Assembly: GCA_002687935.1 (NCBI GenBank)
Contig: NZBN01000002.1
Coordinates: 102,592-157,112 of the forward strand
DNA from: Methanobacteriota archaeon
GTDB taxonomy: Archaea; Undinarchaeota; Undinarchaeia; Undinarchaeales; Undinarchaeaceae
Reading direction: 5' to 3'
Length of the DNA: 54,521 bases
The notes below the pieces were generated by a model. That model was not told where the DNA came from and did not search any database. It worked only from the letters and a program-made list of their open reading frames with translations. Positions 4,369-25,555 of this stretch are shown here, piece after piece. A program made the position numbers and the translations under genes. Positions within the stretch are counted from its first letter, which is position 1, and the number at the start of each line of letters is the position of its first letter.

Positions 4369-5442
4369 TTGTTTATGGTCGCAAATAAGACAGAAATAAA
4401 GGAGAATGGAGCAAAAATCCTGGTTCAGGAAGGAGCGCACACGCCAGAAAAGACTGTTGGTTTCTATAATGCCCGTATGGAATTTAACAGAGATTTCACC
4501 ATAGCAACGCTTTCAGCAGAAGCTCAAAAAGGCTGGAAAGTACTTGATGCATTCGGAGCTTCAGGAGTAAGAGGGATAAGACTTGCCCAAGAAATAGAAG
4601 ACATTGAACTTACAATAAATGACATAAGCAAGGGAGCTGTTGAGCTGATAAAAAGGAATGTAAAACGAAATAAAGTAAGTGCTGAAATTCTTCAGAGAGA
4701 TGCCGCAGCTCTGATGAATGAGAGAAAGTTTGATTTTATAGACCTTGACCCCTTTGGAAGTCCCTCTCAATTTCTTGAACCGGCATTCAGGAGTATTCGC
4801 AATAAAGGAATTGTTGGAATGACCGCAACGGATATGACAGCACTCTGCGGAGTCTATCCAAAAGTGGCAGAACGAAATTATGGAGGAAGAAGTTTAAGAA
4901 CAGAATACTGCCATGAACTTGGAGCCAGACTTGTTATAGCTGCTACTGCCAGAGCAGCTGCCAGATTTGAAAAGAGAATAGAAGTATTGTCAGTTCTGAA
5001 TGCAGACCATTATTTGAGAATAACATTGCGGGCAAGAGATGGTGCAGAGGGTGCAAACAAGTGTTTGACAAATATAAAACAAGGATACCACTGTTTCAAA
5101 TGTAATGAGCATGGTTTTGAGAAGAAATGTAGGTGCAGACAAAAAATAACAGAATTCGGACCAGTATGGAGCGGTCCAATATTTGAAAAGAAATTTATTA
5201 ATGAATCTTTAAAAACTGTAAAAAGGAAAAACTTTGGAACAGAAAAAAGACTTCTAAAAACCTTGGAAGTGATGAAAGAAGAAATTAGGAGTCCGGCATT
5301 TTACTACGACCTTCATAAGCACTACAAGGGAAATGTTCCGAAAATTTCCGAGGCAATAGAAAAGCTAAAAAAACAGGGAATAAAGGCAACAAGAACTCAT
5401 TTCAGCCCGACGGCAATAAAATCAGAAAAATTCAAAAAATGA
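4369..5442 (+). CDS. trm1: tRNA (guanine-26,N2)-dimethyltransferase (start probably ATG 4375)
   Basis: FYNARMEFNRD, LDAFGASGVRGIR, IDLDPFGSP, TATD, RTHFSPTAIK. Confidence 0.95.
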   Translation: MFMVANKTEIKENGAKILVQEGAHTPEKTVGFYNARMEFNRDFTIATLSAEAQKGWKVLDAFGASGVRGIRLAQEIEDIELTINDISKGAVELIKRNVKRNKVSAEILQRDAAALMNERKFDFIDLDPFGSPSQFLEPAFRSIRNKGIVGMTATDMTALCGVYPKVAERNYGGRSLRTEYCHELGARLVIAATARAAARFEKRIEVLSVLNADHYLRITLRARDGAEGANKCLTNIKQGYHCFKCNEHGFEKKCRCRQKITEFGPVWSGPIFEKKFINESLKTVKRKNFGTEKRLLKTLEVMKEEIRSPAFYYDLHKHYKGNVPKISEAIEKLKKQGIKATRTHFSPTAIKSEKFKK

Positions 5443-6363
5443 TTACTCTTCTTTTGCTGAAGCTTCACTCATTTTATCTGCTATACCCAGCTCATCTATA
5501 AGTTCCTTGTAACGATTTCTTATTGTAACTTCAGTAACACCAGCAACCTCGGCGACTTCTCGCTGGGTCCTCTTTTCATTTGACAAAGTTGAAGAAACAT
5601 AAATTGCGGCTGCGGCAACACCGGTTGGACCTCTGCCCGAAACAAGGTCATGTTCCTGTGCCTGTTTTAGGATTTTTATTGCCTCTTCCTGAACAGAAGG
5701 AGAAAGTTTTAGGGAAGATGAAAATCTTGAAATGTAATCTATAGGTGAAGTCGGAAGAAGTTTTATTTTCAGCTCTCTTGTTATGAATCTGTAAGTTCTT
5801 CCTATCTCTCTTTTCTTGACATTTGAAGCCTCGGCAATTTCATCAAGAGTTCTTGGAACATTGTGCTTTCTGCAGGCTGCATAGAGTGCGGCGGCAACAA
5901 CGCTTTCCATTGAACGTCCGCGAACAAGACCCTTTGTAACAGCCTTTCTGTAAATAAGCGCTGTAGTTTCCCTGATGTTCTTGGGCAAACTCAGAGTGCT
6001 TGAAATTCTGTCTAATTCACTCAGAGCAAAGCGGAGGTTCCTTTCAGTAGCTGTTGAAACTTGCTTATGCCATCTCTTAAGCCTGTAGAAAGATGCCCTC
6101 TTAGAGGGAGATAGTTTATACAAGTCACTGTATCCCTGATCTCCGATAGAAGTTGAAAGTCCCTTGTCGTGCCTTGTGTAAGTGAGAAATGAACCGGTCC
6201 TGTCACGCTTCTTCCTCTGCTCATAATCAAAAGCGCGCCATTCCTGAGTTGTATCAATTTGTCGCTCATCTATAACAATTCCACATTTATTGCAGACAGT
6301 CTCCGCTCTCTTTGAGTCAAAGGACACATTTTCTGAATTGCACTCAGGACATTTTTCCGACAT
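5443..6363 (-). CDS. tfb: transcription initiation factor IIB
   Basis: CPEC...CNKCG Zn ribbon, EWRAF, two cyclin repeats, [13 protein letters not shown]. Confidence 0.98.
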
Positions 6364-6899: not shown

Positions 6900-7502
6900 T
6901 CAGTATTCCACACCCCAGCGACCCATAACACCGCGGTCAAATGGATGTTTTTCTCTTTGAAGAACTGTAACATAATCTGCCTCAGCTCGGATTTCTTCAG
7001 GAGCACCCCTACCTGTAAGAACTAGCTCAGTGGACTTGCTTTTGTTCTTTAACATTTCCAAAACATCCTCAGTTTTGATATATTTGAAACTGAGAGCAAC
7101 ATTTATTTCATCAAGAATAACAAGTCCAGAGTCTCCAGAGGATGTGACTTCTTTTGCGAGCTCAAGTGCGTCCTTGGAACTACTCACCATTTCAGTGCTA
7201 GTCATAAAACAATCTCTGCAGCTTCCACATGAATAATCCTTGTCCTTTTTGTACATCTCAGAGTAAGTACATTTTTTTCCAAATTGTTTTATTGTAAAAT
7301 TAGGCATAAAAGTCTCCGACGCCATGTACTCCCCAACATAAGTTCCCCCTTTCAGAAACTGTATCATGTAAACTTTTATGCCGTGTCCGATTGCACGTAA
7401 TGCCAATCCGAGAGCCGCAGTTGTTTTTCCCTTGCCATCTCCAGTATACACATGTACTAAACCAAGCCCAGTTTTTGCATCGCCTGTTTCCCCAAACCTC
7501 AT
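6900..7502 (-). CDS. cobO: cob(I)alamin adenosyltransferase, CobA/CobO/BtuR type
   Basis: VHVYTGDGKGKTTAALG, IQFLKG, LDEIN, LVLTGRGAP, ADYVT, KHPF..G. Confidence 0.95.
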   Translation of the reverse strand: MRFGETGDAKTGLGLVHVYTGDGKGKTTAALGLALRAIGHGIKVYMIQFLKGGTYVGEYMASETFMPNFTIKQFGKKCTYSEMYKKDKDYSCGSCRDCFMTSTEMVSSSKDALELAKEVTSSGDSGLVILDEINVALSFKYIKTEDVLEMLKNKSKSTELVLTGRGAPEEIRAEADYVTVLQREKHPFDRGVMGRWGVEY

Positions 7503-9550
7503 AGACTGTCGCCGGCAGATAAAACTTGATTCTGGTGACTTCCCTCCCGATATACGGTGATTCCCTTACATCCACTCTTCCATGCAAATACCAGAGAATC
7601 ATTTATTTCCTTCAGTGTTGCTGTGTTTTTCAAATTTGCCGTCTTTGAAACTGAATTGTCTACATATTTTTGAAGGGCTGCCTGAATTTTGATATGCCAT
7701 TCAGGGGGTATGTCAAGAGAACTAACAAAAACATCGTGAACCTTTTTTGGAACTTCGGTGAAATTTTGGATTGAGCCAGTCTTTGCAATCTCGGCCATCA
7801 AGGCAGGAGAATAGAAACCGCCATCCATAGCAATCTTCTCGAAGATTGGGTTCGTATATACAAAACGACTGTCCCCAAGAACAGTCATAACATATGAAAT
7901 CGCAAAATTTGGTTCACAGCCGGAAGACACACCTGCAAGAATACTGATAGTTCCCGTAGGTGCAATTGCAATGCAAGTTGCATTCCTCATACGCCTCTTA
8001 TTTTTATGATGAATAGAGCCTTCCCAGGCCGGAAAGGTTCCACGATCCTTTGCCAGTATTTCTGATGTATTATACGCAGTGTCTTTGATATATTTCATAA
8101 GTTTCTCAGCCATTGCAAGACCTTTTTTCGAATCGTATTTTATGTCAAGCATATAGAGCATGTCAGCAAACCCGAAGATGCCAAGACCTATCTTTCGTGT
8201 ACTCTTTGTCGCGAATTCTATGTCGTGATTTGCATAGCTGGCAACATCTATGGAATTGTCAAGGAATCTAACTGCTGTCCTGACTGTCTGCCGGAGAAGA
8301 CTCCAGTCAATATCACTCCAGTCAGACTTCACCATTGCAACCAAATTTATTGAACCCAGATTACAACTTTCATTGGGAAGAAGGGGAACCTCCCCACAGG
8401 GGCTTGTTGCTTCAATCTCCCCGAGGTGTTTGCAAGGATGTTTCTTATTTATCTGATCTATAAAAACAATGCCGGGATCCCCTGTGAGCCAGGCACTGTG
8501 AACTATTAAATCAAAAAGGTCCCTTGCCCGGACCTCTCTGTGCTTCTTTTTTGTGTTAGGGTCAATAAGGTTGAATTTTCCATCCTTCATAACAGCCTTC
8601 ATAAAATTGTCAGTTATAGCAACAGATATGTTAAAATTGCTGAGCCTTCCAAAGCGGTTCTTTGAGCTTATGAAATCGAAAATATCTGGATGGTCAATGC
8701 GGAGAATTCCCATATTGGCTCCTTTTCTTCTACCACCTTGTTTTATGGCATTTGCAGAACTGTCAAAAACATCCATAAAGGCAAGGGGACCAGCTGCAGT
8801 ATCTGCACCGCCTGCAACCATACCCCGTTTTCCACGAAGCCTTGTAAATGAGAAGCCAGTACCCCCACCATTCTTGTTTACAAGAGCAGCAGTCTGAAGA
8901 GTTCCGAATATACCGTTAATCGAATCCTCTATTGGAAGAACAAGGCAGGAAGATAATTGATTCATCTGAGTTCCTGCGTTTGTTATAAGTGTACTACTTG
9001 GGAGAAAGTAGAGATTTTTCATCATCTCATAAAATTCCGTCTCAGTTTTCTTTATAGATTTTGAGCCATATTCTTTTTCAGCCCCTGCAACGGCTTTTGA
9101 AACACGCTTGAGAAGCTGTTGAGGAGTCTCTGTAATTTTTCCTTTATAATCTTTGAGAAGACATCTTCCTTTAAGGACTTCGAGAGCGTAAGTTGAAAAG
9201 TTAAGATTGCTTTCCTTGAAACTCTCACCAAGAACAAATTCATGTTCAGTTCTTTCTTTCTCTCTCTCATGTCTGAAAAGAATATATGCCTTTGCCGTTC
9301 TGTAATGACCGCCCTCAACGAGAGCTTTCTCAACAACATCCTGTATAGCCTCAACACTTAGGACTTTTCCAGAATACTTAGTTCGAAGAGATTTTACAAC
9401 TTCCTGACCTATTGAATAGGCCATCTCCCGGTCTTTGCCGGCAACAGACTGTGCGGCATTCCAGATAGCGTCCTTAATCTTCCCTGGCTTAAAAGGGACA
9501 AGCTCCCCAGTTCTCTTCTTTACTCTGGATAACTTAGAAGTTTTTGCCAT
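7499..9550 (-). CDS. nrdJ: class II (AdoCbl-dependent) ribonucleotide reductase with ATP-cone, copy A
   Basis: ATP-cone VKKRTGELVPF; LSSC, GGGTG, ATSPCGE, ESCNLGS, APTGTIS, KGITVYR; ATG 9550 preferred over TTG 9565. Confidence 0.92.
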   Translation of the reverse strand: MAKTSKLSRVKKRTGELVPFKPGKIKDAIWNAAQSVAGKDREMAYSIGQEVVKSLRTKYSGKVLSVEAIQDVVEKALVEGGHYRTAKAYILFRHEREKERTEHEFVLGESFKESNLNFSTYALEVLKGRCLLKDYKGKITETPQQLLKRVSKAVAGAEKEYGSKSIKKTETEFYEMMKNLYFLPSSTLITNAGTQMNQLSSCLVLPIEDSINGIFGTLQTAALVNKNGGGTGFSFTRLRGKRGMVAGGADTAAGPLAFMDVFDSSANAIKQGGRRKGANMGILRIDHPDIFDFISSKNRFGRLSNFNISVAITDNFMKAVMKDGKFNLIDPNTKKKHREVRARDLFDLIVHSAWLTGDPGIVFIDQINKKHPCKHLGEIEATSPCGEVPLLPNESCNLGSINLVAMVKSDWSDIDWSLLRQTVRTAVRFLDNSIDVASYANHDIEFATKSTRKIGLGIFGFADMLYMLDIKYDSKKGLAMAEKLMKYIKDTAYNTSEILAKDRGTFPAWEGSIHHKNKRRMRNATCIAIAPTGTISILAGVSSGCEPNFAISYVMTVLGDSRFVYTNPIFEKIAMDGGFYSPALMAEIAKTGSIQNFTEVPKKVHDVFVSSLDIPPEWHIKIQAALQKYVDNSVSKTANLKNTATLKEINDSLVFAWKSGCKGITVYREGSHQNQVLSAGDSL

Positions 9551-9564
9551 ATTTTGTATAGGCA

Positions 9565-9580
9565 ATATTGATATTTAAAC
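9565..9580 (-). promoter_or_regulatory. putative TATA box for a leaderless nrdJ-A/cobO transcript
   Basis: TTTAAATA on the minus strand ~22-29 nt upstream of ATG 9550. Confidence 0.4.
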
Positions 9581-9807
9581 TAAGAGTCGCACTTGCTCAT
9601 TCCACACTCAGGATTTGTACAGGAAGAACAGCCCTGTTCAACTTTTAGAGTATTTTTTCCACAATTTGGACATTTTGCAAGGGAAGCTTCATCAGTAGAC
9701 TCTTCTCCATCAGCAGAATCTGTATCAGAAGTCACTTCTTCTATTTCAGAGAGACTTTCCACTTCCTGTAGAGAAATTGTAGCTTGTCCGAATTTAATCA
9801 CCATCAC
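9580..9807 (-). CDS. stand-alone NrdJ C-terminal Cys-rich/Zn-ribbon tail protein
   Basis: CPNCG..L..EQGCSSC..PECG.SKC matches NrdJ C-termini; GTGATG overlap with the upstream stop; GGGGGTG SD. Confidence 0.8.
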   Translation of the reverse strand: MMVIKFGQATISLQEVESLSEIEEVTSDTDSADGEESTDEASLAKCPNCGKNTLKVEQGCSSCTNPECGMSKCDS

Positions 9808-12314
9808 TTAACACCCCCTAAGTCAATCTTTCCAGATTTTACTGCATGATAAACTGTAGTCAGCCGACCATCTGCAAGAGATATTATACTGTCTCCTTTG
9901 AGAGTCTGCTTCTTGCCATCTTCAGAAGCTATTTTGAAGATCTTGTTCTTGAAATCCTGGAATTCTGAAGATTTGCTTCCAATACTGAGAATGGGGTAAC
10001 GACTCCCTTCCCTGTATATTGTTATACCTTTGAGACCCTTTCTCCATGCCTCAAGATACATGTTTGAAATCACCTCAGGCTCTATATCCTCAGGAAGATT
10101 ACAAGTGGATGAAATGCTGTGGTCTATGTATTTCTGGCAAATGGACTGAACCTCTATTCTCTTCTGCGGAACAATGTTATGAGCTGTTCTAAAGAAATGT
10201 TCAGGAAGTAGCCCCTTCAGAGAATCATCCGATTCCAGATTTTCAACTTTGTCAGAAAGTCCTTTAATATCCAAATAAGCCTGAACAGTTCCATGAAATA
10301 CTTTGAAAATTTTATTTCCGAAGGATTCTGAACGTCTTGTATAGTAGAGAGCAAAGATTGGCTCAACTCCGCCACTTACACCCATATAGTTTTTATCTCC
10401 GTCTTTAAAACCAAGAACTATATTTGAAATTGAACCAGTGGGGGCTATTGAAAGAAGTGCAATATTTCTAAGACCTTTTTCCTTAATGATTTGTTTTGTT
10501 TCTTCATCCAAGCTTTCCTGGAAAAAGGGATTTTTAGAATATTTCTCATAGTCATAAATAGCTGAGCTTCCTTTTTCCTCTGCGAGATGTGCAGAAGTTC
10601 TGTAAATTGTATTTGCGATGCGGCACATAACTTTCTCTATAATTTCAAGAGCTTCATCAGAATCATATCCAAGGCCAAGCTGATTCAAAAGGTCTGCAAT
10701 CCCCATAACACCGATACCGAGTCTGCGGGTTTCTCCGGCGGCAATTCTCTGACTCTCGAGAGCATTGAGGCTCTCATTCCATGTAACAACATTGTCAAGG
10801 AATCTTGTCAGATTTTTTGCAGAATGGTCGAGTCTCTCAAAATTAATTGAGGCATTATCAGTATATCCCTTGTCCACCATTCTTGAGAGATTTATAGAAC
10901 CTAAGTTGCAGGCACCTCCATCTTCAAGAGGAACTTCGCCACAAGGATTCGTTGAGCTTATGGGACGTTCGACATAGTTTGAAGGAGAATACTTAGTCAT
11001 AGAAGACCAGAAAATAAGTCCTGGTTCAGCAGTCTGATAATTTCCCTCAATGAAAAGATCCCAGACTTCTCTTGCCTTAACCAAATTTCTTACTTCCCCT
11101 GTATCATCTGATGCAAAATATAGTAAGAAATCACCAGAGTATTTGACAGCCAAGTCATAATCTTTGTTTGTTTCTAGCGAGTAATCACCATAAATATCTC
11201 TCTTTTTGATATCTTCAAGATCTGAAACATTTACCTTAAGGTCGTAATCACTGTGCAGTTTTTCATTGAGTGAGTCTATAGAGTCGAAATCCCCGAGTAG
11301 CTCGTATTCAGAAACATCTTTTGAAGGCACCCCATGGGAATAATTAAGAGCAAGAGTCTGAGGAGCTTTCATAACCGTTCCCTTCGGCTTTTTATAAAGA
11401 AGTAATTTATCAGAATCATGACTTGTTTGCTCGTCAACTGCCTGCATAAATTCATCTGAAACTTTTATACTTATATTTGCGAAACGGATTTGAGTATTGT
11501 CACGGACTTGTTTCTCAATTATTTCCAGCTGAGCATCAGTAAACTTGCCTGACCAGCTACACTGCTCAACAATTTGCTTAGTAACCCAGTTAGAAACCTT
11601 CTTTACTTTTAGGAAGTCCATAATGTCCGGATGCTTGACATCCAGAGTAAGCATAAGAGCACCTCTTCTTCCAGACTGACCAATTAGACCAGTAGTTAGT
11701 GAATAAATATCCATAAAAGAGACTGCCCCTGTAGATGTGTCAGCGGCGTTGTGGACCACAGCTCCCTTTGGACGAAGGGTGGATACATCAATCCCGATTC
11801 CCCCTCCATAAGATTCAGTTCTCGCGCACTGATATGCGGCATCATATATTGACTCTATACTGTCTTTTTTAATGAGAGCAACAAAGCAATTTGCAAGTGT
11901 TTTCAGGCGATAAAGATCTCCGGCTCCTGCGAGAACTCTCCCACCAGGAACATAATAACCATTATATAAATCATTGTAAAATTCAGACGCCCATTTTTCT
12001 CGCCCCTCATCAGAATCTTCAAGGGAAGCAATGAAGGCAGAAAGTCTTGCATAAACATCCTCTGGCCTCTTATCAACAAGATTTATGTCCAAATCCTTTA
12101 GATAATATTTTTTCTCGAATATGTTTTTTGCAAGTTCATTTCCGCAAAGATAGTCTGTAGAGTGGAGGGGAAGTGTCCCGTCTGCCTGTTTTTCCTTGAC
12201 ATATGAAAGAAGTTTTTTATAAGTCTGAACCGGTTCTTCACCAACTTTTTTAGCAAGATTGCTATCAAAATCAAACATATTAGCATAGCCATTAAGTGTT
12301 TCAGATTTTTGCAT
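9804..12314 (-). CDS. nrdJ: class II ribonucleotide reductase, copy B, no ATP-cone, with insertions
   Basis: PGGRVL, TLANC, GGGIG, GRRGALM, STNPCGE, ACNLGS, APTGSIS, KGITIYR. Confidence 0.93.
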   Translation of the reverse strand: MQKSETLNGYANMFDFDSNLAKKVGEEPVQTYKKLLSYVKEKQADGTLPLHSTDYLCGNELAKNIFEKKYYLKDLDINLVDKRPEDVYARLSAFIASLEDSDEGREKWASEFYNDLYNGYYVPGGRVLAGAGDLYRLKTLANCFVALIKKDSIESIYDAAYQCARTESYGGGIGIDVSTLRPKGAVVHNAADTSTGAVSFMDIYSLTTGLIGQSGRRGALMLTLDVKHPDIMDFLKVKKVSNWVTKQIVEQCSWSGKFTDAQLEIIEKQVRDNTQIRFANISIKVSDEFMQAVDEQTSHDSDKLLLYKKPKGTVMKAPQTLALNYSHGVPSKDVSEYELLGDFDSIDSLNEKLHSDYDLKVNVSDLEDIKKRDIYGDYSLETNKDYDLAVKYSGDFLLYFASDDTGEVRNLVKAREVWDLFIEGNYQTAEPGLIFWSSMTKYSPSNYVERPISSTNPCGEVPLEDGGACNLGSINLSRMVDKGYTDNASINFERLDHSAKNLTRFLDNVVTWNESLNALESQRIAAGETRRLGIGVMGIADLLNQLGLGYDSDEALEIIEKVMCRIANTIYRTSAHLAEEKGSSAIYDYEKYSKNPFFQESLDEETKQIIKEKGLRNIALLSIAPTGSISNIVLGFKDGDKNYMGVSGGVEPIFALYYTRRSESFGNKIFKVFHGTVQAYLDIKGLSDKVENLESDDSLKGLLPEHFFRTAHNIVPQKRIEVQSICQKYIDHSISSTCNLPEDIEPEVISNMYLEAWRKGLKGITIYREGSRYPILSIGSKSSEFQDFKNKIFKIASEDGKKQTLKGDSIISLADGRLTTVYHAVKSGKIDLGGVK

Positions 12315-14134
12315 TATTTTTTCCTCCCCTCAAATTTGATATATTTTGAACCTGATTTCTGCGCCTTATCCAAAAGATTCTGAAGACCACCAGATTCTGG
12401 AACTGGAAGTGACTGTAAAGCTCCCCCCTCGAGAAATGGAAGTAAGCTAGACTCAGATAAAAGCTTATTGGATGCATCGAGCTCCGAGGAAGCCCAAAAG
12501 GAAGGAGTGTAAGCACCAATTTTTGATGCGGCATTATAATTTATTGAATCCACTTTAAAAAATCTCTCCAGAATTTGTGTAGCCGGGCACCCTGCTATTT
12601 GAAAATCCAGACCGCTTTGCGCTCTGTATTCTTCGGCATTTTCCTTCATCCTTCCAAGAACTTTGCGACCGAAGTCTTGGGCAGTTTTTTCAGATAACTG
12701 AGAACCAGTTACAAGTTCTACAAATTCATTCATCCCAGTTATTCCAAGTGAAAGTGGTTGGATATCCGGAATCAAATAAGACTCGTCGTCAAGAATTTTT
12801 TGCTGAAGAAACGGTAGAAGATTTCCTTCCATACTTCGATGAACGACTTCTCTTTTTAGGAAAAGTATGTCCTTTGCCGCCGCCATTCTCTGATCCAGAA
12901 TAGTAAAAATCCTAGCCTCATCACTGCCAGAATCATATGCAATTTTAGGAAGATTGAGAGTGACAGTTTGAAGAACTCCTCCACGTGAAACTTCACTCTT
13001 AGGATAATTGAAAACATACGATGAGTTTTGATATGTAAGACCTTCCTGATTTCCAAGAACGAAATGAGGAGTCTGGAATTTTTCTGCAAGTTCAAGTGCC
13101 TTGGAAAGTAAGTCCTCAGAAGGAGAATCCCCAAGGAAGAGATTAAGTTGAGGATAGTCAAAGGGCTTTCCTGCATAATCTCCCTGAATATAAATATCCA
13201 GGACAGCCATAGCAATGGATTTTGACTCTTCAGAATAGTCAGAGTAAACACCTTTAGTGGAACCGCCTGAAGAAACTGCATCAGAAGAGGCAAGATTTTT
13301 AGGAATCTCAAAATGCAAATCAATTGTAGAAGTCATAGTCTGACCCCCACGAGTTACATACATGTGGCTCATTTCAAAAACGAACATCTGAACCAGTTGT
13401 TTTATTTTTGTATAATCGAGACCTTTGACATATGGCGCAAGAAGAACATTGAAGGCTATGAGACCCTGACTCCCTGAGCAATTTATCTGTGCAGCAGATA
13501 GAACTCTAGAAGCCTGGAGGAAGGCCACATCAGAAGCCTTTGCAGGACCAGCGACAGGAGCGAAGAGTCCAAGTCCGTCAACTTTGAGACCATTTCTTAG
13601 GAAGGGTCTGAGATCATGTGAAAGGCAGTAAGGTCTTGTTGCAAAATAATTCAGCCGATGAATATGTAAATTCCCACTCATGTGGTCATCAACGCGAGTT
13701 GGCGGAAGTATATTCACATAGGTATATTCTCTTGAAACAAGGTCCGCCATCATTTTATGAACTGTTTCAGGATTATGTGGAATTTTTTCAGTCTCAGATG
13801 GACCTGTAAAAATTAGCTCACGGACATCATAGACAGGCATTCCAAGACGAGTGTACCTCATTCTGGCGGATTCGTAACCGTGTTCAAGAAGCTTCACGTT
13901 GACTATCTCCCTTATCAGAGGAGCAGTTAGATACTTTAAGTGCATTCTAGAGACATCGTGCTCAACTTCCTGAGAGATTGACTTGGCGATTGACTCATCT
14001 ATACTTGTCTCCTCCACCAGAGACCTTACAATCTTCTCCTTACTAAAGGGAACGAGAATATTTTGAGATGTCCTGACACGTACGGATTCAGGTTTTTCTA
14101 TTGAAGAGGAAACTTGCGCAGTCATTTCTACCAC
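12314..14134 (-). CDS. NrdD (class III RNR)-derived protein, ATP-cone + barrel, catalytically degenerate (start possibly ATG 14125)
   Basis: LTAPLIREIVNVKLLEHG, YTRLGMPVYDV, NPET, HIH, RGGQ, GD..GKPF, VTLNLP; no finger-loop Cys, no C-terminal CxxC pairs, no RxxGY. Confidence 0.85.
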   Translation of the reverse strand: MVEMTAQVSSSIEKPESVRVRTSQNILVPFSKEKIVRSLVEETSIDESIAKSISQEVEHDVSRMHLKYLTAPLIREIVNVKLLEHGYESARMRYTRLGMPVYDVRELIFTGPSETEKIPHNPETVHKMMADLVSREYTYVNILPPTRVDDHMSGNLHIHRLNYFATRPYCLSHDLRPFLRNGLKVDGLGLFAPVAGPAKASDVAFLQASRVLSAAQINCSGSQGLIAFNVLLAPYVKGLDYTKIKQLVQMFVFEMSHMYVTRGGQTMTSTIDLHFEIPKNLASSDAVSSGGSTKGVYSDYSEESKSIAMAVLDIYIQGDYAGKPFDYPQLNLFLGDSPSEDLLSKALELAEKFQTPHFVLGNQEGLTYQNSSYVFNYPKSEVSRGGVLQTVTLNLPKIAYDSGSDEARIFTILDQRMAAAKDILFLKREVVHRSMEGNLLPFLQQKILDDESYLIPDIQPLSLGITGMNEFVELVTGSQLSEKTAQDFGRKVLGRMKENAEEYRAQSGLDFQIAGCPATQILERFFKVDSINYNAASKIGAYTPSFWASSELDASNKLLSESSLLPFLEGGALQSLPVPESGGLQNLLDKAQKSGSKYIKFEGRKK

Positions 14135-14220
14135 CTTAAAACTTTCTTATGTGTATTTTGTGATAATTCAAAAAGCTTTAAATACATTTTTAAACCATAC
14201 ACACATTAAACCGATTAAAG
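14135..14220. promoter_or_regulatory. divergent promoter region between the RNR operon and the TrmB gene
   Basis: AT-rich; TTTAAATA 14177-14184 and TTTTTAAA 14187-14194; TGTATTT/AAATACA inverted repeat. Confidence 0.5.
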
Positions 14221-15114
14221 GTGGGAAATATGCTAGACCCTGAATTCAGAACACTACTCAAAGAAGAATATGGTTTCAGAGAAAACCACTTAATTTTGCT
14301 AAGCCATTTTATGTCTAATAAAAAAAAGAAACTTTCAGCAGAAAGTCTTTGGACTGAAACTGAAGTTCCTAAAGGAAGGATTTACGAATTTTTAAACGAC
14401 CTTGTTGACTGGGGATTCCTTGAAGTTGAATACAAAAAACCAAAAACCTACTCAATACTAAACCTGAAGGAAGCTCTACAAAACGCCATAAGTAGGAAAG
14501 AACGAAAATTAACTGAGACAGAAAAAAAGACTCTTGAAATGGCAAACAAAATAGAAAAAAGCTGGCGTACAGAAGTCGGAGAAAAAACAGGGAGCATACA
14601 AATTATAAGCAGTCCTGAGGAATTTTACATAAAAGCCCGTGAAATGTTAATGGACAGTACAGAGGCGAAGGTTTCAGAAAGAACACCTCTCCTCTTCCTT
14701 TCTACAGAAAGGAACTCAACATGGAGGAGGAGAACTTATGAGAGCATGATAGATATGACAGAAGCAAAGCGCCTAGATTTGAAATATATATTCTCTCTTG
14801 AAAATATAATAAAAATTGCATCTGAAAATGAAAACGCAGATGAAGTAATAAACAGTTTAAAGGATTCTCTTGAAAACGGCAACCTAACATGCAGATATGT
14901 AGCAGGAACCGGAATTGAGAGCATGCTTATTGTAAAAGACAGAGCACTTCTTGGAATTGTTTCTCCTAAAAGCGGATCTGTGGAAAATGGATTATACACT
15001 GAATCGAAGGAAATGGTGGATTCACTCCACAAGATGTATGACCTTGTATTTGATGAAGCTGAAACCCTTGGAATTAAAACTCTGCAGATATTAGGAAAGG
15101 CCCTGGAAGAATAA
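14221..15114 (+). CDS. TrmB-family transcriptional regulator
   Basis: wHTH VPKGRIYEFLNDLVDWGFLE...PKTY, coiled-coil linker, C-terminal effector domain (MLIVKD). Confidence 0.88.
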   Translation: MGNMLDPEFRTLLKEEYGFRENHLILLSHFMSNKKKKLSAESLWTETEVPKGRIYEFLNDLVDWGFLEVEYKKPKTYSILNLKEALQNAISRKERKLTETEKKTLEMANKIEKSWRTEVGEKTGSIQIISSPEEFYIKAREMLMDSTEAKVSERTPLLFLSTERNSTWRRRTYESMIDMTEAKRLDLKYIFSLENIIKIASENENADEVINSLKDSLENGNLTCRYVAGTGIESMLIVKDRALLGIVSPKSGSVENGLYTESKEMVDSLHKMYDLVFDEAETLGIKTLQILGKALEE

Positions 15115-15126
15115 ATTTATCTGGAT

Positions 15127-17973
15127 TTAATTATTTTCAGGGAAGGATTCTGAAAGCTCAATCTTTCTAAGCTTGCCCAGTTTGTATGTTTTAATTAGAC
15201 CCCTTCTTTCAAGGGTGTCGACCCAGCGAGACAGACTTGTAGTTGGAATGCCAGTTGCGTGGTAGATTTTTGCCTGAGTTGTTTTACCATCATTTTGTAA
15301 AATAAATTCTAGAATCTCCTTTGCCCGTGGATTGAGCATGTTCATCACTGAACTTGCTTCCTTTGACACAGTAATTTCGGACATGTTTGGCTTTGAAGGT
15401 TTCACCGAATCCTGAGATATCTTTCTGGAGAATTTTAGAGGACGTGGAATCTTTAACTCAGGAAGACCAGTTCTCATAACATAGGTAGATATTAAGAGAA
15501 ACATAAGAATTCCGCCAATCGACATAGTTGCGACACCTTTGTGGGCTCCTGACCAGACAACAAGACCGGAAACCCAGGAATTTGAATTGTCCTGCTCAGC
15601 ATCAACAGGGATATTTATCTTGTGAGTTTCTGCATCAGAAGAGTAGGAAAGTGAAGTATTATCTGAAATTAAATTTTCAGAAGAATTGACTTGCTCTTCT
15701 ACAGATACAGGTGCTTGTGCAGGAGCTGAATTAAAGCTTCCGCCACCTCCACCGCCTCCGCCGCCTCCAGCAGAGGAGCTTTGAGCTGGCTCATCTTTTT
15801 GGTATCTAAGGATGAAGATGAGGCTCTCATTTGAATCCATGTTTCTTGTGAAAGTGACTACACCTGAAGAGTGGGTGACACCATTAAGAGAACTATTATT
15901 ACCTGACTCAGAAACATTAAGTGAATCGTTGTGAGCATCACTAAGAGTAAATGAGATAACAACAGAATAGGACAGCAAAGAATCGGAATTTACAACGCTG
16001 AGATTCCTTGCAACAGAGAGAGTATCGCTTGGAGCTGAAACTGAAGTGGTGTATTCACTACCGAGTTCGAGGGAAACTAGATTGGACTTCATACAGGACT
16101 CTATATTCGATATATTAGACCAGTTCCCGGAATCAAGTGTAGTCTGATTTTGTGAAAGTGTACAATTCCAACCTGTTCTTCCAGTAAGAGGAATGGCAAT
16201 ATTGGAAAAGTTTGTAGAGCCAGTATTAAGGATACTAATATCTCTTGAAATTGATGTAGAGCCACCGGCGACGACGGAAGCTGAAGCCTGCCAAGCAGAA
16301 TAGGACTCATCGAGAGCATCTCCGGACCAGTTTGCACTGATTGTATAAGAAGTACCTGAATTAAAGGAAGACAAATTTCCAGAACAGAGAGTGCAGTTTA
16401 AAGAATCAGAAAAAGACCAGGAAATATTCGAATAATTTACTGAGCCACTATTGTTCAGAAGATAAGACAGAGAGGCATGCTGGACTGAGATGCTAGAAGT
16501 CCTGTTTAATTCCTGACTTGAGTTTAGAATTGATTTTGAGAGATGATTTGTTAGAAGATATGTTGTATTTGGAAGAGAGCTATTTGAAGGAAGTAGAATA
16601 CTTGAGTTTACTGAACAGACCTTTCTATTATTCAGTGTTGAAACAGTTCCGCTTATTCCACTGATACTGCAGGAGCTTGTTCCGCCGTCGACATAGAACT
16701 TAGTTATATTAAGTGAAAGTGAGGGAGACGAAGTAAAGGAGATTGCTTCTTCTAAGTTTGCAGTACTTCCAAAGGAGTTTGACAAGGAAATAATGTAAAC
16801 TGAGGAAATTGCACCACTGTGATTGTAAGTCAGATTGACATCCAGACGGTTCAGCTCCAGTATGGCTTCTGCTTCAGAATAAAATCGGAGAGGAACTTGG
16901 CAAGACGAATTCAAATAAGTACAGCTTCCAATATAGGAATTAATTGCAGATGAAAAATCTCCTGTTGAATTATTATCAGCGGCGTAAAAACCTGAGACAG
17001 ACCAGACCTGGGTGCTTCCAGCACGCAGATTTGGATTTTTTGGGGTCTTTGGAATTAAAACTGTGCTGGCGCCACCTTTTGTAAACTGGAAATAGTCCAT
17101 ATCCGCAAGAGCTGAGCCTCCGGAAACACCGAATTTGAACTCAGAAAAGGTTTGCCCTCCGCAGTTTGAATTCATACAAGTCATATGACTTGTCTGGAGA
17201 ACCTGCTTCCCATCAACATATATTGTATTCACTTTGCCGTTTTCTAGATAGGTATAACGATAAGTGTGCCACTCAGTAGCATCAAGACTGTAATTGTCCG
17301 TATGTGTGTATACGTCCCCTGGAGCATTAGCAGAATCTTTGAATTTTACATGATCTGTGTATATTTCCATTGCATTTCCTTTGAAATTATTATAGGAACC
17401 GCCACCTGCAAATTCTGAACCTCTGTGGAAACTAAAAATCATTTGTCCTGAAGAACTGTTAGAAATGCGGGCTCTGAACTCAACCGTAAAATTATCAAAT
17501 TGATCTGGTCTGTACTGAGAATTCAGATTCCAATAGCCACTTGAACCATTCATATTCAATATACCGGAACTTATTGAAGAACGTGTATTTCCACTTTCAG
17601 ACCAATTATAGAAAGTCTCATTAGGAAGCTGGCTGGCAGAGTAAGTCCAGTCCCAGTTCTCCCCTGCAAGAGACTGATGACCAATTAACCAGAGCTGTGC
17701 CCCTGAAACTGAGGTTCCGTTTGGAATACTGATATTAGAATATGTATAAATTGACTGGGAAAATGTATGATTTACGGGAAGATAGGAAGAACTTAGTGAA
17801 TTTTCATAAAAGGAAAACACAGGATTCTCCGTGTCAAGTGTAAAGCTTGTTTGGACAAGAGCAAATGAAGATGTTGAGAAAATGCACAAAAACACGAAAG
17901 ACATAGAAAATAATAGTCCATATCTAGCGAGTGCAGAACTTTTGTATATGTTTTTGTCCAAAAAACTGGACAT
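15127..17973 (-). CDS. large Ser/Asn-rich surface protein with TM helix and C-terminal winged HTH
   Basis: SD GGGGGTGG before ATG 17973; signal peptide; LamG/ConA-like segment (FTVEFRAR...WHTYR...IYVDGK); poly-Gly; TM; TQAKIYHATGIPTTSLSRWVDTLERRGLI. Confidence 0.75.
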   Translation of the reverse strand: MSSFLDKNIYKSSALARYGLLFSMSFVFLCIFSTSSFALVQTSFTLDTENPVFSFYENSLSSSYLPVNHTFSQSIYTYSNISIPNGTSVSGAQLWLIGHQSLAGENWDWTYSASQLPNETFYNWSESGNTRSSISSGILNMNGSSGYWNLNSQYRPDQFDNFTVEFRARISNSSSGQMIFSFHRGSEFAGGGSYNNFKGNAMEIYTDHVKFKDSANAPGDVYTHTDNYSLDATEWHTYRYTYLENGKVNTIYVDGKQVLQTSHMTCMNSNCGGQTFSEFKFGVSGGSALADMDYFQFTKGGASTVLIPKTPKNPNLRAGSTQVWSVSGFYAADNNSTGDFSSAINSYIGSCTYLNSSCQVPLRFYSEAEAILELNRLDVNLTYNHSGAISSVYIISLSNSFGSTANLEEAISFTSSPSLSLNITKFYVDGGTSSCSISGISGTVSTLNNRKVCSVNSSILLPSNSSLPNTTYLLTNHLSKSILNSSQELNRTSSISVQHASLSYLLNNSGSVNYSNISWSFSDSLNCTLCSGNLSSFNSGTSYTISANWSGDALDESYSAWQASASVVAGGSTSISRDISILNTGSTNFSNIAIPLTGRTGWNCTLSQNQTTLDSGNWSNISNIESCMKSNLVSLELGSEYTTSVSAPSDTLSVARNLSVVNSDSLLSYSVVISFTLSDAHNDSLNVSESGNNSSLNGVTHSSGVVTFTRNMDSNESLIFILRYQKDEPAQSSSAGGGGGGGGGGSFNSAPAQAPVSVEEQVNSSENLISDNTSLSYSSDAETHKINIPVDAEQDNSNSWVSGLVVWSGAHKGVATMSIGGILMFLLISTYVMRTGLPELKIPRPLKFSRKISQDSVKPSKPNMSEITVSKEASSVMNMLNPRAKEILEFILQNDGKTTQAKIYHATGIPTTSLSRWVDTLERRGLIKTYKLGKLRKIELSESFPENN

Positions 17974-18180
17974 TTTACCACCCCCAAGTGCTCCGTGAAG
18001 GAGGCTGTATATAAATATTCGGATATTGTTGTATATTGTTCCAAATTGGCTCAAATTACTGAACATTTCTCCACCTCTGTACTAAAATGTGTGTTTGACC
18101 TATTTAAAAAAAATCCCGCGAAGCCAAGGGAAGAACGCTTTAACAATATATAAAAAGGACAATTATCATCAAAGCCAGTT

Positions 18181-25416: not shown

Positions 25417-25555
25417 GCCGGCGTAGCTCAGTCTGGTTAGAGCGCTAGACTCATAAGCATCTTATGAGTGATGATCCTTTCTTGAGCAAGAAGGGAAGTG
25501 ACTTATGTGGCGCTAAGACATCTAGAAGTCGCGTGTTCAAATCACGCCGCCGGCA
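25417..25555 (+). tRNA. tRNA-Met(CAT), elongator-like, with a 64-nt intron at 37/38 (25456-25519)
   Basis: GCCGGCG/CGCCGGC acceptor stem; CTAGA-CTCATA[intron]A-TCTAG; relaxed BHB; tRNA-Ile(CAT) not excluded. Confidence 0.88.

Follow-up and report, generated by a model that had tools for sequence, protein, structure and literature searches.

A 54,521-nucleotide stretch of contig NZBN01000002.1 (the window), from an Undinarchaeaceae archaeon, carries an NrdD-like gene from the ribonucleotide reductase (RNR) family, class III (anaerobic). Its product has lost all radical and substrate-binding parts while keeping the fold, and the gene is maintained by purifying selection in conserved order with, and coupled to, genes for a class II RNR, NrdJ. 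Rather than an enzyme, the protein is probably a sensor of nucleotides or a regulator of the supply of DNA precursors. The reading that we prefer, at roughly even odds (about 0.5), is that the gene encodes a class III NrdD fold no longer able to reduce nucleotides, a homodimer that would bind (deoxy)nucleoside triphosphate ((d)NTP) effectors as a signal to the class II RNR.

The minus-strand open reading frame (ORF) at 12314–14134 runs without interruption. Read from the GTG at 14134 it encodes 606 amino acids (aa), as reported in the preliminary description of this DNA, which had called the ORF collinear with NrdD; a Pfam NRDD match (PF13597, 3.1e-80, model positions 4–503 of 562) bears this out. 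The ATG at 14125, just after AGGTGG, is the likelier start and gives 603 aa, equal to database protein P0001; residue numbers refer to this form. The NrdD equivalog model TIGR02487 scores 244.7 bits, under its cut-off of 326.35 (NCBIfam), and the remaining NrdD equivalog models fall likewise far under theirs. An ATP-cone, beginning at about residue 15, gives a weak Pfam match (29.1 bits versus a cut-off of 25.8). Pfam and NCBIfam identify NRDD and ATP-cone only, with no DNA-binding domain (winged helix–turn–helix (wHTH) or Zn ribbon) found in the protein; such a head is also absent from nine sister proteins, which carry one or two ATP-cones. An AlphaFold2 model (97-row alignment; mean predicted local distance difference test (pLDDT) 91.8, predicted template modelling score 0.90) indicates that the protein has the NrdD fold. 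Foldseek against the PDB returns class III RNRs for all chains listed to rank 34 (E 3.6e-28 to 1.3e-19, template modelling (TM) score 0.62–0.75; from S. thermophilus, P. copri, T4 and T. maritima), with class I RNRs and other glycyl-radical enzymes ranking next (E ~1e-9). An ESM Atlas look-up returned NrdD/ATP-cone clusters only.

Catalytic motifs were judged against canonical archaeal relatives in MAFFT alignments (120 relatives first, then the 190 proteins of 550–830 aa among 263 retrieved) and verified on the DNA. The NxN flap reads PSETEKIPHNPE versus SKENANLQYNPE in the canonical relatives, and HxHD reads HIHRLN versus HIHDLD, with loss of the Asp. In the finger loop, TYQNSSY stands for CYQCCSF, both YQCC cysteines being replaced (Asn, Ser); a HMMER alignment to T4 NrdD sets the PMGCR loop (Cys290, counted on the printed alignment) against a gap. 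The PAE loop is CPATQ instead of TPAES, losing the active-site Glu, and the YTNS element is YTPSF instead of YYTNSF. These substrate-contact motifs differ even among close relatives (ETEK versus EREE). The protein ends in KYIKFEGRKK, after the last barrel strand and exactly where relatives go on to CxxC...CPxCG...WSRITGYYQ, and is missing the Zn ribbon and the glycyl-radical loop (RxxGY). Retained are the β-A (‘bottom’) Cys (RPYCLSHD versus canonical RPFCFSHD), the two His of HxH and many barrel residues. For P. copri NrdD, PMC11226230 describes two Asn of the NxN flap that bind the γ-phosphate and base of the substrate, a triphosphate held by HxHD and a loop ending in Glu581, Cys416 as radical initiator and Gly711 as radical carrier; each of these role-bearing elements is changed or absent in the window protein. 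The alignments and the DNA thus uphold what had been proposed by eye: replacement at the finger loop, NxN, HDL, PAE and YTNS, and a stop just before the Zn site and glycyl-radical loop.

Radical machinery was also sought across the genome holding the window (666,542 bases, 11 contigs, 86.6% complete). It has a single PF13597 match, the window gene, and no second NrdD. The NrdG model TIGR02491 has no match in window or genome, the best genome match to TIGR02495 reaches 16.7 bits versus a cut-off of 131, and Gly_radical (PF01228) has no genome match. Radical_SAM (PF04055) has four, the two over cut-off being lipoyl synthase and a generic SPASM/MoaA-like protein. When the C-terminal 120 residues from each of eight canonical relatives, and one same-order NrdG, were used as tblastn queries, the genome gave nothing below E = 0.07. 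Two congeners (G011 and G012; 75% and 83% complete) yielded no NrdG, second NrdD or free glycyl-radical piece, although absence from incomplete genomes is not proof. The lack of NrdG first noted for the window therefore extends to the genome and two congeners, and the genome search that had been suggested for nrdG and a separate glycyl-radical domain found neither, by profiles or tblastn.

What remains is the allosteric half. We scored the 218 columns of the alignment in which conservation across 40 canonical relatives reaches 95% or more; regions were drawn from published motifs after the alignment was seen, hence no test statistic is given. Outside the catalytic elements 128 of 155 columns are kept (ATP-cone 27/27; dimer helix to HxH 19/21; β-A and hairpin 15/18; residues 201–242, 14/18; 243–270, 14/20; 271–355, 15/22; 381–505, 23/28; 523–535, 1/1). 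The flap (1/6), finger loop (1/7), PAES loop (3/6), YTNSxH (2/6) and C-terminal radical region (residue 547 to end, including 21 Zn/radical columns; 6/38) together keep 13 of 63. A profile of the radical-less clade was then aligned to the P. copri chain, whose numbers equal those of the paper plus 4; this offset fits HxHD, Asn298, Arg305, Gln309 and Glu581, while the paper's Glu290 falls on Gln and was left unused. GLKVDGxGxxxxxxGPAK aligns with the specificity-site hairpin (paper residues 185–192), and the radical-less clade does not vary at its D183, G184, G186, G193, P194 and K196. Invariant E251 aligns with Asn298, which reads the effector base according to PMC11226230, and YVxRGGQ aligns with loop 2 (304–311, including Arg305 and Gln309). 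Neither the ten closest radical-less proteins nor the canonical ones vary at the hairpin, E251 and loop 2 residues.

These elements fall within a predicted NrdD-type homodimer. Two copies of residues 106–603 gave an interface score (ipSAE) of 0.65, versus 0.00 for the best of three controls; among solved structures, 20 of 30 homodimers and 1 of 23 monomers reach the ipSAE mark applied. The dimer runs share at least 96% of contacts, with partner pLDDT at least 87. The predicted interface (114–131, 160–164, 179–193, 197–215, 243–262, 315–322 and 431–439) includes the hairpin and the helix and loop 2 elements. NrdD dimers have already been solved, so this pass may reflect memory, and is to be taken as likeness, not proof.

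Orthologues in G011 and G012 are 84% and 86% identical, and frames are intact in both and on a metagenome contig (L105). All three share the order large surface protein, TrmB-like, NrdD-like, nrdJ, 74-aa ORF, nrdJ. Ratios of nonsynonymous to synonymous substitution (dN/dS, Nei–Gojobori) for the NrdD-like gene are 0.077, 0.085 and 0.154, beside 0.048–0.111 for the 836-aa nrdJ, 0.057–0.089 for the 688-aa nrdJ and 0.041–0.085 for the TrmB-like gene. The NrdD-like gene is maintained by purifying selection and is not decaying. The preliminary description had argued for selective catalytic loss under selection, and had suggested measuring dN/dS and collecting homologues lacking the glycyl-radical domain. 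Its argument is supported: ratios are low and near the nrdJ values, columns are kept outside the catalytic elements and lost within them, many close homologues are radical-less, and neither a finger-loop Cys nor a radical subunit or NrdG was found.

Such proteins are common among the relatives. Of the 190 near-length sequences, 86 have the radical motif, 8 look like canonical fragments and 96 are radical-less, these also lacking at least one of NxN, finger Cys and PAE. The window protein belongs to this last class (NRDD core, no glycyl-radical motif, motif losses, intact ORF). A FastTree tree of 83 rows (a quick method, with long branches flagged) places it in a supported clade of 14, made up of groups A to C and of P0006, in which the radical domain is still present. 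Apart from this clade the tree has one of 36 radical-less proteins with two cones, many of them labelled Altiarchaeota, and other losses are scattered over it. P0005 and P0006 (670 and 673 aa) are the nearest relatives keeping Zn ribbon, RITGY, NxN and PAE; they are without the β-A Cys (RPYTFSHD) and have a single finger-loop Cys (SYQSCSY), and by these motifs may represent an intermediate, or else an active form that is unusual. Fusion of NrdD with NrdJ or other domains was considered and rejected, as all eight long relatives scanned (of ~70 listed above 830 aa) are intein-bearing NrdDs. A cluster 84% identical to the window protein (Candidatus Undinarchaeum marinum/Undinarchaeales) is named ‘anaerobic ribonucleoside-triphosphate reductase’. 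Near-identical DNA occurs in at least 20 public runs from 16 studies (marine, seawater and hydrothermal-vent metagenomes), six of 20 possibly being the assembly source; none of the 24 public runs checked is recorded as RNA.

In a survey of 13 genomes of the order, the dead copy is accompanied in this genus by two nrdJ genes, and nrdG is absent. In genera g2, g4 and g7 nrdD lies next to nrdG, and there is no nrdJ. G006 has both systems, its dead-type copy lying 5.5 kb from nrdJ. In five further genomes (loci L022, L030, L016, L019 and L025) the radical-less copy is the sole NRDD match, with NrdG in none and NrdJ in four. Radical-less NrdD with NrdJ and without NrdG is thus the state of three genomes of the genus, of G007 and of four of the five further genomes. 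Within clade A–C, nrdJ is on the same contig within ~6 kb in all three independent lineages that have downstream sequence (this genus; G006/G007; L022, at 38 nt).

In the window the two genes overlap. The stop TAA (12314–12316) of the NrdD-like gene and the ATG of nrdJ share the last A of the stop (TAATG, behind GAGGGGAGG), the nrdJ stop and the start of the 74-aa ORF overlap as TGATG, and a purine-rich stretch lies upstream of both. By this arrangement the NrdD-like gene is the first cistron, translationally coupled to a cone-less nrdJ. A Cys-rich Zn-finger tail, C-terminal in most class II RNRs, is here its own gene between two tail-less nrdJ genes; L105 also has the tail as a separate ORF (74 aa, 73% identical). 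A reductant-shuttle role is described for this tail in PMC5704485. The two nrdJ paralogues are only ~32% identical, both being under strong purifying selection. The cone-bearing one has an SPCGE finger loop versus NPCGE in its 836-aa paralogue; section 2.5 of PMC9669993 gives NPCxE in 3,175 of 3,347 class II sequences.

Since the allosteric half is kept and the catalytic half lost, the working form would most likely be a homodimer to which effector (d)NTPs still bind, their binding serving as a signal. Gone are the thiyl-radical Cys, the substrate contacts, the Zn ribbon and glycyl-radical domain, and, from the genome as assembled, NrdG. Selection has kept the inner of the ATP-cone-like domains, the long helix of the dimer, the hairpin of the specificity site, and the two elements, a helix and loop 2, with which genuine NrdDs read the dNTP bound at the dimer interface. 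Because the gene is first cistron of a coupled nrdJ operon (nrdD-like, cone-less nrdJ, split Zn-finger tail, cone-bearing nrdJ), the class II RNR system is the most likely target, perhaps through contact with NrdJ or its tail, perhaps through action on its expression. We infer both effector binding at the dimer interface and the class II target. The candidate role put forward in the preliminary description, a nucleotide-sensing regulatory subunit or scaffold, is compatible with the parts that are retained.

Several observations weigh against a nucleotide sensor of this kind. The window protein has no DNA-binding or other output domain by Pfam and NCBIfam. Canonical relatives and the larger radical-less clades carry two cones, and the window protein and its sisters only the inner one; the outer cone is lost, and the retained cone scores only 29 bits. 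Inner cones of multi-cone RNRs can be non-binding. In an alignment with the neighbouring NrdJ's cone, a typical one (32% identity over 82 residues), RTS stands opposite KKR, which makes ATP/dATP binding by the window protein's cone doubtful; in the P. copri cone the residues that bind phosphate include Lys7 and Arg8 (PMC11226230). The same sequence occurs in active enzymes of the clade too. The dS between window and G011/G012 is ~1.2, near saturation, which makes those two ratios rough, and the closer pair (dS 0.17) has the highest NrdD-like ratio, 0.154. The G007 copy (46–48% identical), which shares a contig with nrdJ, has two in-frame TAA stops; these could be assembly error or real decay, and the gene may be dispensable in that genome. 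In the wider family, nrdJ is in the fetched flanks of only 2 of 15 stand-alone radical-less loci from genome_contigs, and no NrdD–NrdJ fusion occurs among the eight long relatives scanned. Supply of a cone in trans, which we considered, is not general, as the adjacent nrdJ of G007 aligns over the cone region of the neighbouring NrdJ.

A bolder version, which we regard as unlikely, is a hybrid reductase in which the dead class III dimer is a trans-acting allosteric subunit of the class II enzyme. Sensing the pool of dNTPs at its retained specificity site, perhaps also at the cone, this dimer would dock on the cone-less, tail-less NrdJ and the split Zn-finger tail. If true, the activity or specificity of a B12 reductase would be set by the relic of a glycyl-radical reductase.

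The neighbourhood on the other side offers another partner. Without a DNA-binding domain of its own, the protein would act through the divergent TrmB-family wHTH protein, as the sensor half of a two-part transcription regulator. Such a pair would be a split version of the wHTH, ATP-cone and dead-NrdD proteins found upstream of archaeal RNR genes: in 30 Bathyarchaeia-type loci (9 + 21) a more distant radical-less paralogue (666–830 aa, 1668 aa in L031; organism titles mostly Bathyarchaeia) lies directly upstream of canonical nrdD, and all four of the upstream proteins scanned carry an N-terminal DUF7347/ArsR-type wHTH and an ATP-cone. The TrmB-like gene, 86 bp upstream, is syntenic in all four copies of the cluster, and the intergenic stretch 14110–14235 is 95% identical in four genomes though flanking-gene dS between the window and the others exceeds 1. 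This region holds two TTTAAA-type boxes; inverted repeats in it have only 7–13-nt arms, at chance level. We nevertheless consider the split regulator improbable. The TrmB-like gene is tied to RNR genes in this genus only, the order's other ten genomes have its weak relatives in four places (21–32% identity), none of them close to nrd genes, and no TrmB-like gene sits beside the copies of G006, G007 and L022. A TrmB protein carries an effector domain itself and does not require a partner, and translational coupling points to NrdJ rather than to the TrmB-like regulator.

The residues called allosteric above could instead merely hold fold and dimer, in a nucleotide-independent scaffold or chaperone that serves the class II reductase or some other protein. 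Because the conserved positions fall within the predicted dimer interface as well, ligand binding and dimer stability cannot be told apart by conservation alone; the atypical cone and the operon coupled with nrdJ would suit a scaffold as well. Invariant polar residues at effector-reading positions (E251 on Asn298; RGGQ on loop 2) and the full set of 27 retained cone positions argue the other way, and we give the scaffold a small chance.

That the protein is still an enzyme, with a new non-radical nucleotide activity or reducing ribonucleotides with radical parts in trans, is very unlikely. The β-A Cys, the two His of HxH and many barrel residues remain, and at 86.6% completeness the genome may be missing a partner. 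However, the finger loop has no Cys, each of the four substrate-contact motifs is altered and they differ even from one close relative to another, neither the genome nor the two congeners yielded NrdG or a glycyl-radical piece, and the β-A Cys is not conserved in sister group B. Least credible of all is a decaying, functionless remnant of an anaerobic reductase that was lost: NrdJ is what the organism depends on now, the G007 relative has in-frame stops and the same DNA occurs in seawater metagenomes, where an oxygen-sensitive enzyme would be useless, but the frame is intact in four copies at dS ~1.2 with dN/dS of 0.08–0.15, the AlphaFold2 fold is confident, and whole clades of such proteins have conserved residues of their own.

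Features of the NrdD-like gene, its operon and related loci (window positions unless a locus is named)
Feature	Position	Strand	Remarks
Radical-less NrdD paralogue	12314..14134	(-)	606 aa (GTG 14134) or more likely 603 aa (ATG 14125)
ATP-cone-like domain, residues 15–105	13811..14083	(-)	27/27 clade-invariant positions kept; equals inner of two canonical cones
Degenerate NxN flap	13781..13795	(-)	ETEKI for ENANL; alignment and DNA
HIHR for triphosphate-binding HxHD	13655..13666	(-)	Alignment and DNA
β-A Cys167	13625..13627	(-)	Retained also in P0002 and P0003; Ser in sister group B; alignment and DNA
Specificity-site β-hairpin equivalent GLKVDGLGLFAPVAGPAK	13538..13591	(-)	Aligns with P. copri NrdD; in predicted dimer interface
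Helix with Q243 and E251, and loop 2 equivalent YVTRGGQ	13340..13399	(-)	Conserved with canonical relatives; in predicted dimer interface
Finger-loop remnant TYQNSSY	13016..13036	(-)	Loop after it ~8 residues shorter; alignment and DNA
CPATQ for TPAES	12575..12589	(-)	Alignment and DNA
YTPS for YTNS	12500..12511	(-)	Alignment and DNA
nrdJ, class II RNR, 836 aa	9804..12314	(-)	NPCGE finger loop; without ATP-cone or Cys-rich tail; start overlaps NrdD-like stop
74-aa ORF	9580..9804	(-)	Acidic linker and CX2C-X10-CX2C-X4-C-X4-C; matches class II RNR tail PRK08665, positions 713–758 of 759
Second nrdJ, 688 aa (TTG) or 683 aa (ATG 9550, as in orthologues)	7499..9565	(-)	ATP-cone; finger loop SPCGE
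Divergent promoter region, TrmB-like gene to operon	14135..14220	.	Contained in aligned stretch 95% identical in four genomes
TrmB-family wHTH regulator, 297 aa	14221..15114	(+)	Divergent, 86 bp upstream; syntenic only in this genus
G007 broken homologue	L102 / L008 (G007:C26), 4800–6302		Two in-frame TAA; contig coverage ~3.5 per title
Tandem-pair loci, set 1	L132, L134, L136, L142, L143, L145, L147, L148, L151, L152, L154–L158, L162, L163, L166, L168, L173, L181		
Tandem-pair loci, set 2	L031–L034, L036, L040, L054, L058, L085		

Beyond the operon, the synteny of the RNR cluster in G012 and L105 takes in a 979-aa protein (15127–18066 in the window, minus strand). Judged by eye, its N terminus shows a membrane segment, which is followed by a long stretch rich in Asn, Ser and Thr, a run of Gly, another membrane segment and a C terminus resembling a winged helix. 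Rfam over the whole window gives four tRNAs and no other RNA element; the tRNA match at 25417–25555 (plus strand) spans 139 bases versus a 71-position model, which suggests an intron.

Among known systems the closest is class III NrdD of the archaeal double-cysteine ‘QCC’ finger-loop type (a subclass described in PMC9669993, section 2.5), which belongs to the same Pfam family and whose canonical archaeal members are 42–48% identical to the window protein; solved class III relatives are those of T4 (1H78), T. maritima (4COI/4U3E), P. copri (8P23) and S. thermophilus (9D3X). With canonical NrdD the protein shares the predicted fold (TM 0.62–0.75), the predicted dimer interface, and conserved residues of the inner ATP-cone, the specificity-site hairpin and loop 2. 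It differs in having no thiyl Cys, NxN Asn, PAE Glu, Zn ribbon or glycyl-radical loop, HxHR for HxHD, one of two cones, no NrdG in the genome and a score under the equivalog cut-off. Like the scanned wHTH proteins (L132, L148, L163 and L166), it combines a dead core and a cone directly upstream of a working reductase gene; those carry the DNA-binding head and precede canonical nrdD, whereas the window protein is headless and precedes nrdJ, and they are only ~30% identical to the canonical NrdD P0022. An analogy of logic with NrdR is possible, as an RNR-derived nucleotide-sensing domain controlling RNR supply. NrdR, the bacterial nrd-operon repressor, joins a Zn ribbon to an ATP-cone (PMC9110341, PMC12176259); it has a DNA-binding Zn ribbon and no reductase barrel, whereas the window protein has no recognised DNA-binding domain.

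Catalytically dead class I RNR homologues are kept for non-catalytic roles in yeast (Rnr4) and herpesviruses (R1 homologues such as M45). These involve a different RNR class and different partners, and none is class III. A literature search found no description of NrdD homologues without radical parts, although supplementary files may list such sequences; parts of PMC9531940, PMC9669993, PMC2795772 and PMC3019208 mention only Cys-bearing finger loops. As far as that search went, this would be the first class III example of an RNR pseudoenzyme.

The database name ‘anaerobic ribonucleoside-triphosphate reductase’ is wrong for about half of the nearest relatives, and would mislead metabolic reconstruction, for example where anaerobic dNTP synthesis is inferred in marine DPANN archaea. 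Most archaea are without a known RNR regulator (an abstract on NrdR places it in ‘some archaea’ only), and the dead NrdDs, which form a large family placed next to working RNR genes, are a concrete candidate. Their headless member in the window offers a clean test of the NrdD allosteric core acting alone.

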